Shown: positions 54,001-60,000 of the stretch, piece by piece | Layout: the number at the start of each line of letters is the position of its first letter | How positions within the stretch are numbered: position 1 is the stretch's first letter | NCBI RefSeq assembly: GCF_055900595.2 | Contig: NZ_CM148325.1 | DNA: 64,000 bases | Reading direction: 5' to 3' (one strand) | Made by a program: the position numbers

Positions 54001-57000
54001 ATGTGACGCAGAGTCTGGTATCGGCGCTGTCTATGCAGTCCTTACCCGCGCTGGTGCGCGCTGCTGGCGGTTCGCTGGCGCTTGCCGGTGCGACAACCCT
54101 GTTTATGCTGCCCTGGGCGCTGAAGTTTATTTGGGCGCCGTGGATCGAGCGCTGGCGGCTTCCGCCCGGTAGCCAGGAACGCCGTTCCCGCATGTTAATC
54201 CTGCGTGGTCAGGTCGCGCTAGCGGCGATCCTGACTATTGCCGCAGCGATTGGCTGGTTTGGGCGAGAAGGGGGATTCCCCGATACGCAAATCGTCGCGT
54301 TATTTGTTCTGTTTATGGTGGCAGGCACGGTCGCCTCCACCATTGATATCGCCAGCGACGGCTTTTGTGTCGATCAACTGACCCGCACGGGTTACGGCTG
54401 GGGAAACAGCGTGCAGGTCGGCGGCAGCTATCTGGGAATGATGTGCGGCGGCGGGGTGTTCCTGATGCTGTCGGCGGCATCCGGCTGGCCTGTCGCCATG
54501 CTGATGATGGCGGTGCTGATTATGGCGCTGTCACTCCCGCTGTGGCGCATTACGGAGCCGACGCGAACAGCGACTATCCCGCATGTTCCGGCGTTAGGTT
54601 ATGCGCTAAGGAGGAAGCAGGCGCGCCTGGGCTTACTGCTGGTATTGATGCTGAATTCAGGCATGCGGTTTGTGCTGCCTCTTCTGGCACCGCTGTTGTT
54701 GGATCATGGGTTGAGCATGTCCGCATTGGGCGCGCTGTTCAGCGGCGGCAATATTGCAGCGGGCATAGCAGGAACGCTGGCCGGCGGATTGCTGATGAAA
54801 TACACCTCACCCGGCAGAGCGCTGTTGACGGCTTATGGCGTCCAGGGGATCGCGCTGCTGGCGGTGGTGATGACGCTCATGATGGCGCCGGGTCATCTGC
54901 TGCTGCAGATTCTCCAGTGTCTGGTCATTGTCCAGTCCATTTCGCTGGCCTGCGCGCTGGTCTGTCTTTACGCCACGCTGATGTCGCTTTCATCGCCTTT
55001 GCAGGCCGGTGTCGACTTCACCCTCTTTCAATGTACTGACGCGGCAATCGCCATTCTGGCTGGCGTTATCGGTGGCGTTGTTGCTCAACATTTTGGCTAT
55101 GCGGCCTGCTTCCTGTTTGCCGGGGCATTCACGTTGCTGGCGGCGTGGGTTGCTTATATCCGGCTGCATTCGGCAAGAGAACTGATGACAAGCGCAATTG
55201 ATTGATCCGGGAATAACACAGAGAGGTAAGGGATGAAAATCAGTGAATTTCTACATCTGGCGTTACCAGAGGAACAATGGCTACCGACGATTTCTGGCGT
55301 TTTACGCCAGTTCGCAGAAGAAGAGTGTTATGTCTATGAGCGTCAACCCTGTTGGTATTTAGGCAAAGGGTGCCAGGCACGGCTGCACATTAATGCCGAC
55401 GGAACGCAGGCGACATTTATTGATGATGCTGGGGAGCAAAAATGGGCGGTGGATTCCATTGCCGACTGCGCGCGTCGTTTTATGGCGCATCCTCAGGTGA
55501 AAGGACGTCGGGTATATGGACAGGTTGGGTTCAACTTTGCGGCGCATGCGCGGGGGATTGCCTTTAACGCCGGGGAGTGGCCGCTGCTGACGTTAACCGT
55601 TCCCCGTGAAGAACTTATTTTTGAAAAGGGAAATGTCACCGTTTATGCGGACTCCGCCGACGGGTGCCGACGTTTGTGCGAGTGGGTAAAAGAGGCCGGT
55701 ACAACGACGCAGAACGCACTACTGGCGGTGGATACCGCCCTCAATGGTGAGGCATATAAACAACAGGTTGCGCGCGCCGTTGCGGAGATCCGCCGTGGCG
55801 AGTATGTCAAAGTGATTGTCTCGCGCGCCATTCCCCTGCCATCGCGGATTGATATGCCCGCCACGCTGTTATACGGGCGGCAGGCAAACACGCCTGTGCG
55901 CTCGTTTATGTTCCGTCAGGAAGGACGCGAAGCGCTGGGCTTTAGCCCGGAACTGGTGATGTCAGTGACGGGCAATAAAGTGGTCACTGAACCGCTTGCG
56001 GGCACCCGCGATCGCATGGGAAACCCGGAGCATAATAAGGCGAAAGAGGCAGAACTGCTGCACGACAGTAAAGAGGTGCTTGAGCATATCCTTTCTGTCA
56101 AAGAAGCTATTGCTGAACTGGAGGCTGTTTGCCAGCCGGGCAGCGTGGTGGTTGAAGATTTAATGTCGGTTCGCCAGCGCGGCAGCGTTCAGCATCTGGG
56201 GTCTGGCGTGAGCGGTCAGCTTGCGGAAAACAAGGATGCCTGGGATGCGTTTACCGTGCTGTTTCCGTCGATTACCGCCTCAGGTATCCCTAAAAATGCT
56301 GCTCTGAACGCGATTATGCAAATTGAGAAGACGCCGCGAGAGCTTTATTCCGGCGCAATCCTGCTGCTGGACGATACGCGCTTTGATGCGGCGCTAGTTC
56401 TGCGTTCCGTATTTCAGGATAGCCAGCGCTGCTGGATACAGGCGGGGGCGGGAATCATCGCGCAATCTACGCCGGAACGCGAACTGACAGAAACCCGGGA
56501 GAAATTAGCGAGCATTGCGCCCTATTTAATGGTGTAGGAGTAACTGTTTTCTAACCTCACAACCAGACTGTCCAAAGACAATTGAGTCGCTCTTTGATTC
56601 CTCTGTGACTCTATTGTCTTCTTTTGGGATAAAATAGGTGTTTTTCGTCATGAAGTTGATAAAAGTCTATATAGAACCACCTCCTGTGGAGGTGGTGGTA
56701 ATTTGCCAGAGTGTGGGATTCGTTAGTATACTATGGGATAAACTTATTTTTACCAATTGTATAAGGCGGTGCATAAGATTCTCGGCATGCTTCCAGATAA
56801 TCCGACCACCACTGCATCATCGCTTTGCGGGCTTCCAGGTGCTCTGCCTTATGAATATAAGCCATGCGCACGGTATTGCGCTCCTGATGACTCATCTGGC
56901 GTTCTACTGCGTCCTTTGCCCATAAACCCGATTCCATCAGCGCACTGCATGCCATTGCCCGGAAGCCGTGACCGCAGATATCCTTTTTCGTGTCGTAACC

Positions 57001-60000
57001 CATCACCCGCAGTGCCTTATTGACCGTGTTTTCACACATTGGCTTATACGGGTTATGGTCGCCGGGGAAGATCAGTTCATTATTACCGGTGATATCCTTA
57101 ATCTGTTTCAGAATGGCGATGGACTGTTCTGAGAGGGGGACGATATGCGGCATTCGCATTTTTGCCCCGCGGCCGGAATAATGCACGCCAATAATGGGTT
57201 CTCGCGTCGCGGGTATCGTCCAGACTCGGTTTGTGAAATCAATCTCTGACCAGCGGGCGAAACGCAGTTCACTGGAGCGAATGAACACATGCAGCATCAG
57301 CAGAACGGCATGCCGGGTCAGTTCACGGCCCTGATGATATGCCCCAATACGTTCAAGCAGTTCAGGCAGCCGCTCCAGCGGCAGGGCAGGATAGTGCCGT
57401 CTGACAGGAGGTGTGGTCACGCCGCCAAGGTTTGCTGCAGGGTTCGTATCGATTAACTCCTGATGGACCGCATGGCGTATTATGTTACTCAGGTGCTGCC
57501 GTGTGCGGGACGCAACCTCCAGCAGACCTTTTTCCTCGATCCCTTTCTGCAGGTCAATGAAATGACGGGGTTTAAGTTCTGATACAGGTAGGTTCCCGAT
57601 GACCGGAAAGATGTGATTGTTCAGGCTGGCAAGCAGACGGTCGGCGGTGTTCTGCGACCATTTCCTGTTACTTTTATGCCACGCCAGCGCCACGTTTTTA
57701 AAAACTTTCTCCGGTGTTCGTGAGCCACGTACAGCAGCCCGCTGCTGTACCGGGTTGATATTCAGCGCCAGCATTTTACGGATACCTTCAAGTTGCTGTC
57801 GCGCATCAGACAGGGAGATGGCTGGATAGGCACCCAGCGCAATGCGGGATTCTTTACCGCTAATACGGTATTTGAGATACCAGTGGCGGGAGCCACCCGG
57901 CTTGACCCGCAGATACAGACTGTGAGAATCGGAGACTTTAAAGGGTTTATCAGAAGGCTTGAGGGTGCGGATTTTTGCGTCGGTAAGGGATATATGGGGG
58001 TCACTCCATTATCGAACTAACCTGACCCCAGATTTGACCACCAATTTTTCCCGATGCGTAGGGTAAAATCAAAATGCACCGAGAAGAGTTTTCACACTAA
58101 CCTGTTGAATCAACATCAGATAAAGATTCGCAAGGATGCAAGAAAACAGAAAATTGGCTCCTCTGACTGGACTCGAACCAGTGACATACGGATTAACAGT
58201 CCGCCGTTCTACCGACTGAACTACAGAGGAATCGTGAGAACGGGGCGCATATTACTTAGCGGTACCTTGTCTGTCAACACTAAATTTCATAAGCCATTTC
58301 AATTGGTTAATTAATCTGCAAAGTTGTTAATTAATGAACATTCGTCGCCGAAAACGAGTCTGTATCATTAGCGTGATGCAGTCTCTGCAAAGGATCTTGT
58401 TGATAAAATTGGCAGAAACGTTGCCACAATGAAGGGAAACGAGGAGCAAAAAGTTCTGGGGCGCTAAAGAAATATTCAGAAAGTACGGCAAAACATTCAG
58501 CAGGATCACTGGCAGCATAAGCATCGATGCTCGCCGCATTCTCGCCAACCAATTCGATTTCTTCCTGAATGTTGTTCATTGCAGCATGAAGATCGTGTTC
58601 CCAGCCAGCAACCTCACGCAACGGAATAAAGGGAACTCCGCTGGCGCGATCGCCGTTACGGGTGTCCAGCTTATGAGCGACTTCATGAATAATCAGGTTA
58701 AAACCAGAAGCATCAAAAGAATCTTGTATATCCAACCAGTTCAAAACGATAGGCCCTTGCTGCCAGCTCTGACCTGACTGAACAATACGTTGGTTATGCA
58801 CCAGACCGATATCGTCTTCCCATTCATCATCGACCACAAATGGCGCAGGATAAATTAAGACTTCATGAAAACCATCCAGCCATTCCAGTCCTAACTCCAG
58901 AACGGGCAGGCAAAATAGAAGTGCTATCCGGCAGCTTCTTAATGAATTCAGCTCAAAGCCCTGTAAAGGAACAAGCCGTTTTTGCTGTAAAAAACGTTCG
59001 GCAAGAGTGACTAATTTGCTTTGTTCCTGTTCCGTCAGACACGTTAAAAGGGGGATCGATAGTGCTTCCTGCCAGGGAAGGGCAGTTTGATGTGCTGATT
59101 CTTGTACTTTCCAGGGCCACTTAATCATCGTTTTGCTCGCAAACTCGTCACTTGAACAAAATTGCACGGACAGGGACTGTTAAAATGCCAAATTTCCTGG
59201 CATCATGGCAACCATCTGAACGGAGAGATGCCGGAGCGGCTGAACGGACCGGTCTCGAAAACCGGAGTAGGGGCAACTCTACCGGGGGTTCAAATCCCCC
59301 TCTCTCCGCCACTTTATCAATGACTTATCTCCCGACTTCCCGCCTTGCTTTTCCTAAACAGAACAATCGTAGAATATTCTTGAAGGGTTAGATCGTCACT
59401 GTTTTCTGTTCGATACTGTGACATTCAGCACTTGATTCGCTATGGATCTGACAGGAAGCTTTCGAGCGAAAATGTGCAGTTATTCAGTCGTTTTCTTATC
59501 GCTCACCATTATTCTTTTAGACATTCATCCTATGAAACTGCCGCAAAGTTGGTGGTGGGAACTGAAGTTGCGTAGAGAAGGGGTCAATATTTGAGCCAAA
59601 AAAGGAACGCGGCCGTCAGATTAAAGCCGCGGGACAAAGTCCATAATTTCCAAGAGTTGTTGAATTTCCCAGCTTTTTTGAAAGCCTTTGTATCATACTA
59701 ACAAGTAAAAAAGGTTTAAATACCAAAATTAACCTGTATTTTTGATAAGTCTTACCATTGTACGATTTACACAGTTTCTGCTCCTCCTTGTTGATAGTGG
59801 AAAGGGTGCATTGTGCACTTGCGTAAACATTTATGACGCGTTGATGTCCATGGTTCACATTTCCTTGTCAGGGGATCGTCTTATTTGCGGCGAGGCATCA
59901 TTCGTAACAGAGTATTATCTTTCTGAATGTAGTGATGAAAGAGTGCTGCGCCAGCGTGAGCTGCGATTAAAAAGTAACCTATATTTGCCCAGGTTTCGTG

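Follow-up and report, generated by a model that had tools for sequence, protein, structure and literature searches.

An ATA start codon in the integrase gene of a fixed E. coli HPI is a common inherited allele

The integrase gene (int) of the yersiniabactin island (HPI) in the window, by which we mean the whole stretch of 64,000 nucleotides analyzed here (contig NZ_CM148325.1, assembly GCF_055900595.2), begins with ATA instead of ATG. This ATA is an ordinary and common inherited allele in a gene that has lost its use: the far end of the island disappeared long ago, and with either start codon in int the island cannot excise. The explanation we favor, and consider likely, is that ATA is an inherited, derived allele of a stranded and effectively neutral int in a fixed island, and that it spread together with the cargo.

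Results

Start codon and product of int

On the minus strand, direct reading of the codon at 57993-57991 gives ATA (plus-strand TAT at 57991-57993) in the context ...GATAATGGAGTGACCCCCAT ATA TCC CTT ACC GAC GCA AAA..., and the translation from this codon is I-S-L-T-D-A-K-I-R-T-L-K-P-S-D-K-P-F-K-V. The in-frame stop upstream, TAA at 58011-58009, is followed by W-S-D-P-H with no ATG, GTG or TTG, and in the ORF list the next in-frame codon of these three kinds after ATA is Met74 (ATG at 57774). The frame stays open over 420 sense codons up to the stop at 56731-56733. The canonical start that gives MSLTDAK... in a P4-type integrase is not found in the window int. The initial annotation had described a P4-type HPI integrase with a continuous frame of 421 codons, with ATA in place of its start codon and with no canonical start before the internal Met of MLALN. 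All of this was confirmed: the gene adjoins asnT, the 421 codons are 420 plus the stop, the first canonical start is Met74, and the alignment with other E. coli HPI int genes that had been proposed shows ATG at the homologous codon in the ATG alleles. The features are collected in Table 1.

Table 1. Features of the island and its flanks in the window.
Feature	Position	Strand	Basis
Right-end junction, island ORF fused to yeeJ (inverse autotransporter) remnant	26309..27114	-	
Yersiniabactin cargo ybtS, ybtX, ybtQ, ybtP, ybtA, irp2, irp1, ybtU, ybtT, ybtE, fyuA	27708..56537		ORF list, NCBIfam
int (intB), P4-type tyrosine recombinase, 420 codons + stop	56731..57993	-	Pfam, allele tables
Met74 ATG, first canonical in-frame start (347 aa, MLALN...)	57772..57774	-	reading, ORF list, Pfam
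Weak SD-like GAAGG, 10 nt 5' of Met74	57785-57789		sequence reading
Rare SNP, nt 203 G>T, R68L; separates the window from FDAARGOS_1058	57791	-	allele table
ATA codon where the ancestral int ATG stood	57991..57993	-	reading + allele/species comparison
Mini-ORF ATG-GAG-TGA, encloses the GGAG SD	58009-58001	-	sequence reading
GGAG Shine-Dalgarno (SD), 10 nt 5' of ATA	58004..58007	-	sequence reading
SNP at -148 from the start codon; T here, derived marker linked to ATA	58141	-	allele/species comparison
17-bp att core CCAGTCAGAGGAGCCAA, 3' end of asnT (attL side)	58154..58170	-	pattern search
tRNA-Asn (asnT), island integration site	58155..58230	-	ARAGORN
Promoter-like TTGACA-17-TAATAT upstream of asnT	58249..58277	-	consensus scan
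mtfA (yeeI), flanks asnT	58331-59167		NCBIfam match to MtfA

The encoded protein matches the Pfam domains Arm-DNA-bind_3 at residues 3-87 (3.5e-22), Phage_int_M at 98-191 (1.3e-22) and Phage_integrase at 224-384 (1.6e-19). Compared with the consensus/mobile allele, it has the changes G25S, L29R, E88V, L149Q, M172I and R271H, which define the '042/FDAARGOS_1058' type, and the rare R68L. Identity is 412/420 residues with Raoultella and 405/420 with K. pneumoniae ATCC 13883, and after residue 271 there are zero amino-acid differences from the DA33133 ICE-type allele. The nearest complete genome for int is FDAARGOS_1058, with no 100% match among complete genomes.

Spread and ancestry of the ATA allele

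Of 5,426 complete E. coli genomes, 861 contain the exact 41-mer around ATA, among them Nissle 1917, 042 and ATCC 11775; CFT073 has ATA too, but with a mismatch at -8. ATA is the largest single allele class of int in E. coli, the exact 41-mers of the ATG alleles numbering 81 (consensus), 537 (ATG+D5S) and 408 (ATG+S2F), and an ATG start is present in at least 1,026 E. coli genomes. These exact counts are those of the '>=99%' band, as short queries also returned one-mismatch matches, whose counts were asymmetrical (798 vs 861) and were therefore disregarded. The 5' part of int was found in 2,329 genomes, and the ATA allele makes up ~37% of the int-bearing genomes of this collection, which is skewed to clinical lineages, so that allele frequencies do not equal population estimates.

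The homologous codon is ATG, in the context GGAG(T/C)GACCCCCAT-ATG, in the E. coli ATG alleles and in K. pneumoniae, Raoultella, K. spallanzanii, Phytobacter and Pantoea, the five species matched in a scan of species representatives (Yersinia was not among the matches). In all the ICE-type E. coli islands, int starts with ATG as well. Because five other species and the ICE-type islands carry ATG in the same context, this comparison indicates that ATG is the ancestral state and ATA a derived, inherited ATG>ATA (G>A) substitution. At the -148 marker, 8 of the 9 ATA alleles have T, whereas each of the 16 ATG sequences, from 11 E. coli alleles and 5 other species, has A; strain 98194 has ATA on the -148A background. 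The int alleles are mosaic, with sites 3 and 86 in all four combinations. We rejected this four-gamete pattern as proof that ATA recurred independently, given the evident mosaicism of the alleles and the -148T that 8 of the 9 ATA alleles have in common.

The right end of the island

All 11 cargo genes are full length and intact in a gene-by-gene comparison, with ATG or GTG starts. The distal repeat had initially been reported as missing, and indeed a search of the whole window found no 17-bp att core at the fyuA side, even with 3 mismatches; the core is present only at four tRNA-Asn genes, with no fifth copy at ≤3 mismatches. The island DNA past fyuA is ~1 kb long and has one ORF, which gave no match in Pfam and PHROG searches and is the N-terminal remnant of a 308-aa ICE ORF. 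At the fusion point (~26705), the first ~118 codons of this ORF, which has 308 aa in ICE-type islands, are joined to yeeJ, and the loss of 1 nt from an A run further splits the fusion ORF of the window. Beyond the junction, the window has no attR, no AlpA/Xis and no conjugation module. The excisionase is found only in ICE-type islands, where the distance from fyuA to AlpA is 1.9 kb, which places AlpA beyond the junction point.

These comparisons indicate that one old deletion took away the far end of the island, attR and the AlpA-type excisionase included, and left it unable to excise. A right-border deletion is already known from the literature to have fixed the E. coli asnT HPI (Schubert 2009, PMC2606025). 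The fyuA-yeeJ junction is common to 2,228 genomes (≥95% identity), and the annotated regions of ST131, NRG857c and 1070/13 show this right-border deletion in islands with ATG as well. The initial annotation had predicted a non-excisable island from ATA combined with the missing repeat. The immobility stands, but the ATA is irrelevant to it: ATG islands share the deletion, and the junction is found in more genomes than the 861 with ATA.

Selection on int and its cargo

In fixed islands, the dN/dS of int is 2.2-2.6, compared with ~0.13 for mobile-type int and 0.22 for the ybt genes of the same genomes. The 14 fixed alleles have 25 non-synonymous (N) and 3 synonymous (S) changes vs 13 N and 31 S in mobile-type int (Fisher P = 6e-7); compared with the cargo in the same genomes, the counts are 21 N : 3 S in int vs 161 N : 233 S in ybt/fyuA (Fisher P = 7e-6). 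The excess over 1 in fixed islands is not significant (binomial P = 0.12 two-sided, 0.07 one-sided). These substitution patterns indicate that int is decaying, without purifying selection, in fixed islands, whereas the adjoining yersiniabactin genes are still constrained.

The last 149 codons of int (after 271) hold 2 of the 25 non-synonymous changes (P = 0.002). The alleles were sampled by divergence in the first 294 nt, and with these set aside the skew after codon 271 has P ~0.04 by a hand estimate; synonymous diversity in the last 149 codons is also low among mobile int alleles. In view of the 5'-biased allele choice and this low synonymous diversity, we downgraded residual selection on the catalytic domain as an explanation. 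The 420-codon frame is open in 9 of 9 sampled full-length ATA alleles; few stop codons are to be expected in alleles with 3-8 substitutions each. Other, independent lesions of int are a recurrent 347-bp deletion (PMC2801613), truncations by IS1 and IS91, and M74I.

How could an integrase gene come to this state? In the neutral explanation that we favor, deletion of the far end would have left the integrase without an excision substrate, so that mutations in int became effectively neutral. The ATG>ATA change would have arisen once, perhaps twice. Its spread would be due to hitch-hiking on the useful cargo and to exchange of the island among E. coli lineages through homologous recombination. Against neutral decay, we counted the 9 open frames, the few changes in the last 149 codons and the dN/dS above 1.

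Alternatively, int may have been actively silenced. With the strong tRNA-Asn promoter still driving its transcription, a stranded integrase would be harmful, as it might nick attL or recombine attL with the three other nearby asn tDNAs. Selection would then have favored mutations that reduce or abolish it, and ATA would be one of several convergent hits. This would also cover the surplus of residue changes in the DNA-binding domains, and the dN/dS of 2.2-2.6 agrees with it, as do the several independent lesion types (ATA, the 347-bp deletion, the IS insertions and M74I), the three further att cores within 45 kb, the reported transcription from the tRNA promoter (PMC13023037), and the ATA on -148A in strain 98194, where ATA could have originated a second time. 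However, the dN/dS of int does not exceed 1 significantly, ATG and an intact ORF persist in more than 1,000 genomes (ST131 among them), the 98194 case is explicable by recombination among mosaic alleles, and the toxicity of Int is a supposition. We therefore regard active silencing as rather unlikely, though the strongest of the alternatives. If true, the E. coli HPI would be a natural time series of a host disarming the recombinase of a domesticated island.

Transcription and translation of int

The int start lies 161 nt downstream of asnT. The promoter-like site upstream of asnT is likely the tRNA-Asn promoter and the source of read-through into int while the island is integrated, as the int genes of ICEKp1 and ICEEc1 are transcribed by read-through from the tRNA-Asn promoter (PMC13023037). 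When folded, the 5' UTR (57950-58154) was no more structured than shuffled sequence (z = 0.07), and the attenuator stem-loops described for ICEKp1 were not confirmed in the window.

Under neutral decay, int may thus still be transcribed at a low level by this read-through, and the GGAG SD, which is kept in every allele and species compared, would still recruit ribosomes. AUA is a near-cognate initiator in E. coli, with 1-2% of the activity of AUG (bioRxiv 10.1101/063800). Because AUA initiation would be only ~1-2% of that from AUG, full-length Int is probably made at a trace level, strongly reduced but not abolished. The initial annotation had considered a full-length integrase unlikely; less of it is indeed to be expected, but AUA initiates weakly, the SD is present, and RefSeq does not flag the CDS. 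A truncated product from Met74, without the arm-binding domain, is also possible, and neither product would be expected to alter the behavior of the island.

Could the ATA instead be a functional near-cognate codon, maintained to hold a useful integrase at a very low level? In RefSeq (PGAP), the annotated 420-aa CDS starts at ATA and is not flagged as a pseudogene, AUA can initiate (bioRxiv 10.1101/063800), the SD is conserved, and the ORF is open in all nine sampled ATA alleles. We nevertheless consider such a tuned start improbable: every other species and allele class has ATG, the downstream ORF is without purifying selection (21-25 N vs 3 S), and, with attR and the excisionase gone, the enzyme has no partners.

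Still less probable is that the real product begins at Met74, with 347 aa that comprise the core-binding and catalytic domains. Met74 is the first canonical in-frame start and has the weak SD-like GAAGG upstream; in GenBank, the older annotations of CFT073 and 536 begin at this codon, and at least 1,000 contigs carry an annotated 347-aa form. These annotations, however, stem from gene callers that accept only ATG, GTG or TTG. The predicted product would be without residues 3-87, the arm-binding domain, which lambda-type integrases need for arm-dependent recombination. Met74 itself is also lost in strain 98194, and the non-synonymous changes run on through residues 88-271.

Finally, the possibility that the ATA is an error of sequencing or assembly, or is private to this strain, can be practically dismissed because the same 41-mer is present in 861 independently sequenced complete genomes, and the exact window Int protein is found on 64 public contigs; resequencing of 57991, named earlier as a possible refutation, is moot because ATA is not strain-specific damage.

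Discussion

Structurally, the window is no different from the fixed E. coli asnT HPI (Schubert 2009, PMC2606025; PAI IV536, CFT073/Nissle HPI), with the same mtfA-asnT site, the same int-ybtS...fyuA order, the distal 17-bp repeat lost and the same fyuA-yeeJ junction. The int start 41-mer of the Nissle 1917 HPI is identical to that of the window, while CFT073 differs at -8; the 1-nt frameshift in the junction ORF is extra in the window. The mobile ICE-type HPIs (ICEEc1 of ECOR31/ED1a, ICEKp and HPI-ICEEh1) have int genes of 96-98% amino-acid identity to the window and share with it the three Pfam domains, the 5' UTR, the SD and the place beside tRNA-Asn. They differ in their ATG start, in having attR, an AlpA-type excisionase and conjugation genes downstream of fyuA, and in the purifying selection on their int.

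In Yersinia enterocolitica 1B, int has a premature stop. Other inactivated HPI integrases include an intB with a deletion of bp 124-470 (Paauw 2010, PMC2801613) and that of ECOR72, which is interrupted by an IS (PMC2606025). Like the window int, these have degenerative lesions in islands that no longer move by site-specific recombination. Unlike them, the window gene has a start-codon change with the whole frame left open, and therefore the lesion would weaken translation without destroying the coding sequence.

Near-cognate starts can be functional, as is the AUU of infC. Both infC and the window int have an AUN-type first codon behind a normal SD and a RefSeq-annotated start. On the other hand, the window codon differs from such maintained starts in that it is not conserved, being ATG in all relatives, and the ORF that follows is without purifying selection. 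On these comparisons, the ATA looks like decay, not regulation.

The immobility of the island was already known, and the ATA allele is present, and RefSeq-annotated, in the textbook strains CFT073, Nissle 1917 and 042. In the open-access literature, we found no description of the ATA start, of inconsistent int annotation linked to it, or of the contrast between int decay and cargo for an ATA-start gene. For this genome, the ATA matters little, as the island is already immobile. The inconsistent annotation of int, as 420 aa from ATA (PGAP) or 347 aa from Met74 (older or Prodigal-style), may mislead pan-genome analyses and screens in which an intact integrase is taken to mean a mobile island. 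The comparison of int (dN/dS ~2) with ybt (~0.2) offers a clean quantitative case in which a mobility gene decays after fixation of its element, with the cargo still under selection.

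The ATA Codon at the Start Position of int

The initial annotation placed ATA where the start codon of int should be, int being the P4-type integrase gene of the high-pathogenicity island (HPI), and we observed that this was right in every detail, from the minus-strand reading to the ORF list and the domains. From the ATA, 420 sense codons are open, and the three domains of the protein (Arm-DNA-bind_3, 3–87; Phage_int_M, 98–191; Phage_integrase, 224–384) are those of a P4-type tyrosine recombinase. A mini-ORF, kept in all compared alleles and species, overlaps the GGAG Shine–Dalgarno motif and stops 7 nt upstream of the int start codon.

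Features of the int region, the tRNA-Asn genes, and the right end of the island (window coordinates)
Feature	Position	Strand	Remark
In-frame TAA	58011-58009	-	followed by TGG AGT GAC CCC CAT; direct reading
Mini-ORF ATG-GAG-TGA	58001-58009	-	2 codons
GGAG	58007-58004	-	10 nt before ATA
ATA, start-position codon	57993-57991	-	followed by TCC CTT ACC GAC GCA AAA; direct reading
First ATG/GTG/TTG of the frame (Met74)	57774	-	ORF tool; 347-aa product, MLALN...
int stop codon	56733-56731	-	
int codons 272-420	56731-57180	-	
-148 A>T	58141		relative to the int start codon
tRNA-Asn asnV	13823-13898		17-bp att core; named by gene context
tRNA-Asn asnU	16231-16306		17-bp att core; named by gene context
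tRNA-Asn asnW	18055-18130		17-bp att core; named by gene context
tRNA-Asn asnT	58155-58230		17-bp att core; named by gene context; mtfA beyond
IS1 transposase ORF	23308-23811		between yeeJ remnants and shiA
Fusion ORF across the junction	26309-27114	-	

ATA is a common allele. The exact 41-mer centred on the variant base was present in 861 of 5,426 complete E. coli genomes, including 042, the type strain ATCC 11775, and Nissle 1917, which has the same integrase start allele as the window, and since 2,329 complete genomes contain the 5′ part of int, ~37% of these carry ATA. Exact ATG 41-mers were found in at least 1,026 genomes in total (consensus type, 81; ST131 type with D5S, 537; with S2F, 408). 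The remaining ~19% of the int-bearing genomes have further variants nearby; among those sampled, 1070/13, 15A, 361, and JS316 have ATG, and CFT073 has ATA plus one extra upstream change (A>C at −8). No complete genome matched the int of the window at 100%. The nearest was FDAARGOS_1058, from which the window differs by G>T at nt 203 (R68L), and the exact protein was found on 64 public contigs.

How much integrase would such a start yield? In E. coli, reporter assays put initiation at AUA, a near-cognate start, at 1–2% of that at AUG (bioRxiv 10.1101/063800). RefSeq/PGAP begins a 420-aa CDS at the ATA, with no pseudogene call, in Nissle, CFT073, and FDAARGOS_1058; the original annotations of CFT073 and 536 and many Prodigal-style calls start instead at Met74. 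The earlier view that a full-length integrase is unlikely to be made holds in that the output is probably low, but it goes too far in that trace amounts of full-length Int are likely to be made from the ATA, possibly alongside some Met74 product devoid of the arm-binding domain. In the integrated state, int of the HPI integrase family is transcribed by read-through from the tRNA-Asn promoter, attenuated by the 5′ UTR, and an alternative int promoter is located at the 3′ end of the island (PMC13023037). That end is deleted in the window, where a promoter-like site lies upstream of asnT and a scan ahead of int found no promoter of similar quality.

Right-Border Deletion and Immobility of the Island

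Is the ATA codon what holds the island in place? In a pattern search, the 17-bp att core was restricted to the four tRNA-Asn genes of the window. Only ~1 kb of island DNA lies past fyuA, and its sole ORF comprises the first ~118 codons of the 308-aa ORF of ICE-type islands (mobile HPIs retaining the far end), fused to a yeeJ remnant at ~26705. Beyond this ORF, ICE-type islands carry an excisionase of the AlpA family as well as transfer genes, none of which is present past fyuA in the window. The junction marks the one deletion of the right border to which Schubert et al. attributed fixation of the island (PMC2606025). The prediction of a non-excisable island was thus borne out by the lack of a distal att core and of an excisionase and by the shared fyuA-yeeJ deletion. 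On the other hand, the ATA, proposed as a contributor, adds nothing to the immobility: the same junction is annotated in the ATG-bearing islands of ST131, NRG857c, and 1070/13 as well as in Nissle, and the junction sequence is carried by 2,228 complete genomes, more than the 861 with ATA.

The window island is the fixed HPI of E. coli, which has been well studied. Location at asnT alone does not imply a fixed island, because JS316 (NZ_CP058618.1) carries there a second, independent HPI kind, which is ICE-type, has a Klebsiella-like ATG int allele, and keeps the 308-aa ORF, AlpA, DUF2857, and TraR genes past fyuA.

Around the junction, we also noted that the fusion ORF, an open 249-aa ORF in Nissle and other strains (named 'inverse autotransporter beta domain-containing protein' by PGAP), has lost 1 nt from an A run near 26850 in the window and is thereby split in two. 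The IS1 transposase ORF lies just outside the right end of the island. The four tRNA-Asn genes are all within 45 kb, and asnW has no insertion, so the window strain lacks the pks island.

Polarity and Origin of the ATA Allele

A degenerate pattern, [M/I]SLTDAKIRTLKP, was used to look for integrase genes of other species and recovered K. pneumoniae, Raoultella planticola, K. spallanzanii, Phytobacter, and Pantoea. In each of the five, ATG is preceded by the same GGAG(T/C)GACCCCCAT, and so it is in the asnV-inserted E. coli islands of DA33133, 361, and 23GD35035 and in the Klebsiella-like island that JS316 has at asnT. ATG is thus the ancestral start codon.

In eight of the nine ATA alleles, ATA is accompanied by another derived SNP, −148 A>T; the ATA alleles otherwise sit on differing backgrounds. 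The ATA-bearing window type has L29R and E88V in common with the ST131 type, which bears ATG; neither change is present in the Nissle type, the PAR allele is a mixture of backgrounds, and all four combinations are present at sites 3 and 86. Given these combinations and the linkage to −148, the alleles are best read as the product of a single ATA origin followed by intragenic recombination, which fits the known spread of the HPI by homologous recombination (PMC2606025). The exception is strain 98194 (NZ_CP173588.1; irp1 annotated as frameshifted, L030 7760-17252), which combines ATA with −148A and whose private int changes are all G>A, M74I among them, with ATG>ATA at codons 1 and 74. Its ATA may reflect either a second origin or recombination; the strain could be a case of independent loss of the start codon in an island decaying as a whole.

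Loss of Constraint on int

We compared full-length int alleles, 14 from fixed islands and 5 mobile-type. They were picked for divergence over the 411 nt at the 5′ end, so 5′ changes are overcounted while the ratio of non-synonymous (N) to synonymous (S) changes is unaffected. The private derived changes of the fixed clade numbered 25 N and 3 S, a dN/dS of ~2.6 that is not distinguishable from neutral (P = 0.12), whereas the mobile-type differences numbered 13 N and 31 S (dN/dS ~0.13; Fisher's exact P = 6e-7 for fixed vs. mobile-type). Could selection be actively silencing a stranded integrase driven by a tRNA promoter? We consider this unlikely, and the present statistics give it no support.

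As a within-genome control, int was compared with eleven pooled ybt/fyuA genes in seven fixed-island genomes, giving 21 N : 3 S for int and 161 N : 233 S for ybt/fyuA (Fisher P = 7e-6). Since the ybt/fyuA genes of the same genomes remain at a dN/dS of 0.22, the lost constraint is specific to int. Among the cargo genes of the fixed clade, N:S ratios exceed those of the rest in ybtP (9 N : 2 S) and ybtE (7 N : 3 S), on counts too low for interpretation.

These ratios indicate that int is decaying, and further lesions agree: a 347-bp deletion of bp 124–470 in EE72d (described in PMC2801613), truncations by IS1 and IS91, and seven amino-acid changes in the window int, of which G25S, L29R, and R68L are inside the arm-binding domain and E88V is just past its end. 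Diversity in codons 272–420 is very low in every class (2 of the 25 fixed-island non-synonymous changes; 5 of the 44 mobile-allele differences, synonymous included), for which ascertainment, mosaic history, or residual constraint are possible explanations.

By architecture, position, and 96–98% identity to mobile relatives, the window int fits the HPI IntB family, and it departs from it in the canonical start alone. It does not resemble genes that maintain a non-AUG start: its codon is not conserved and its ORF is unconstrained. We found no mention of the ATA start in the open-access literature searched; the sequence and its annotation are already public, and it is established that the island is immobile and its integrase dispensable.
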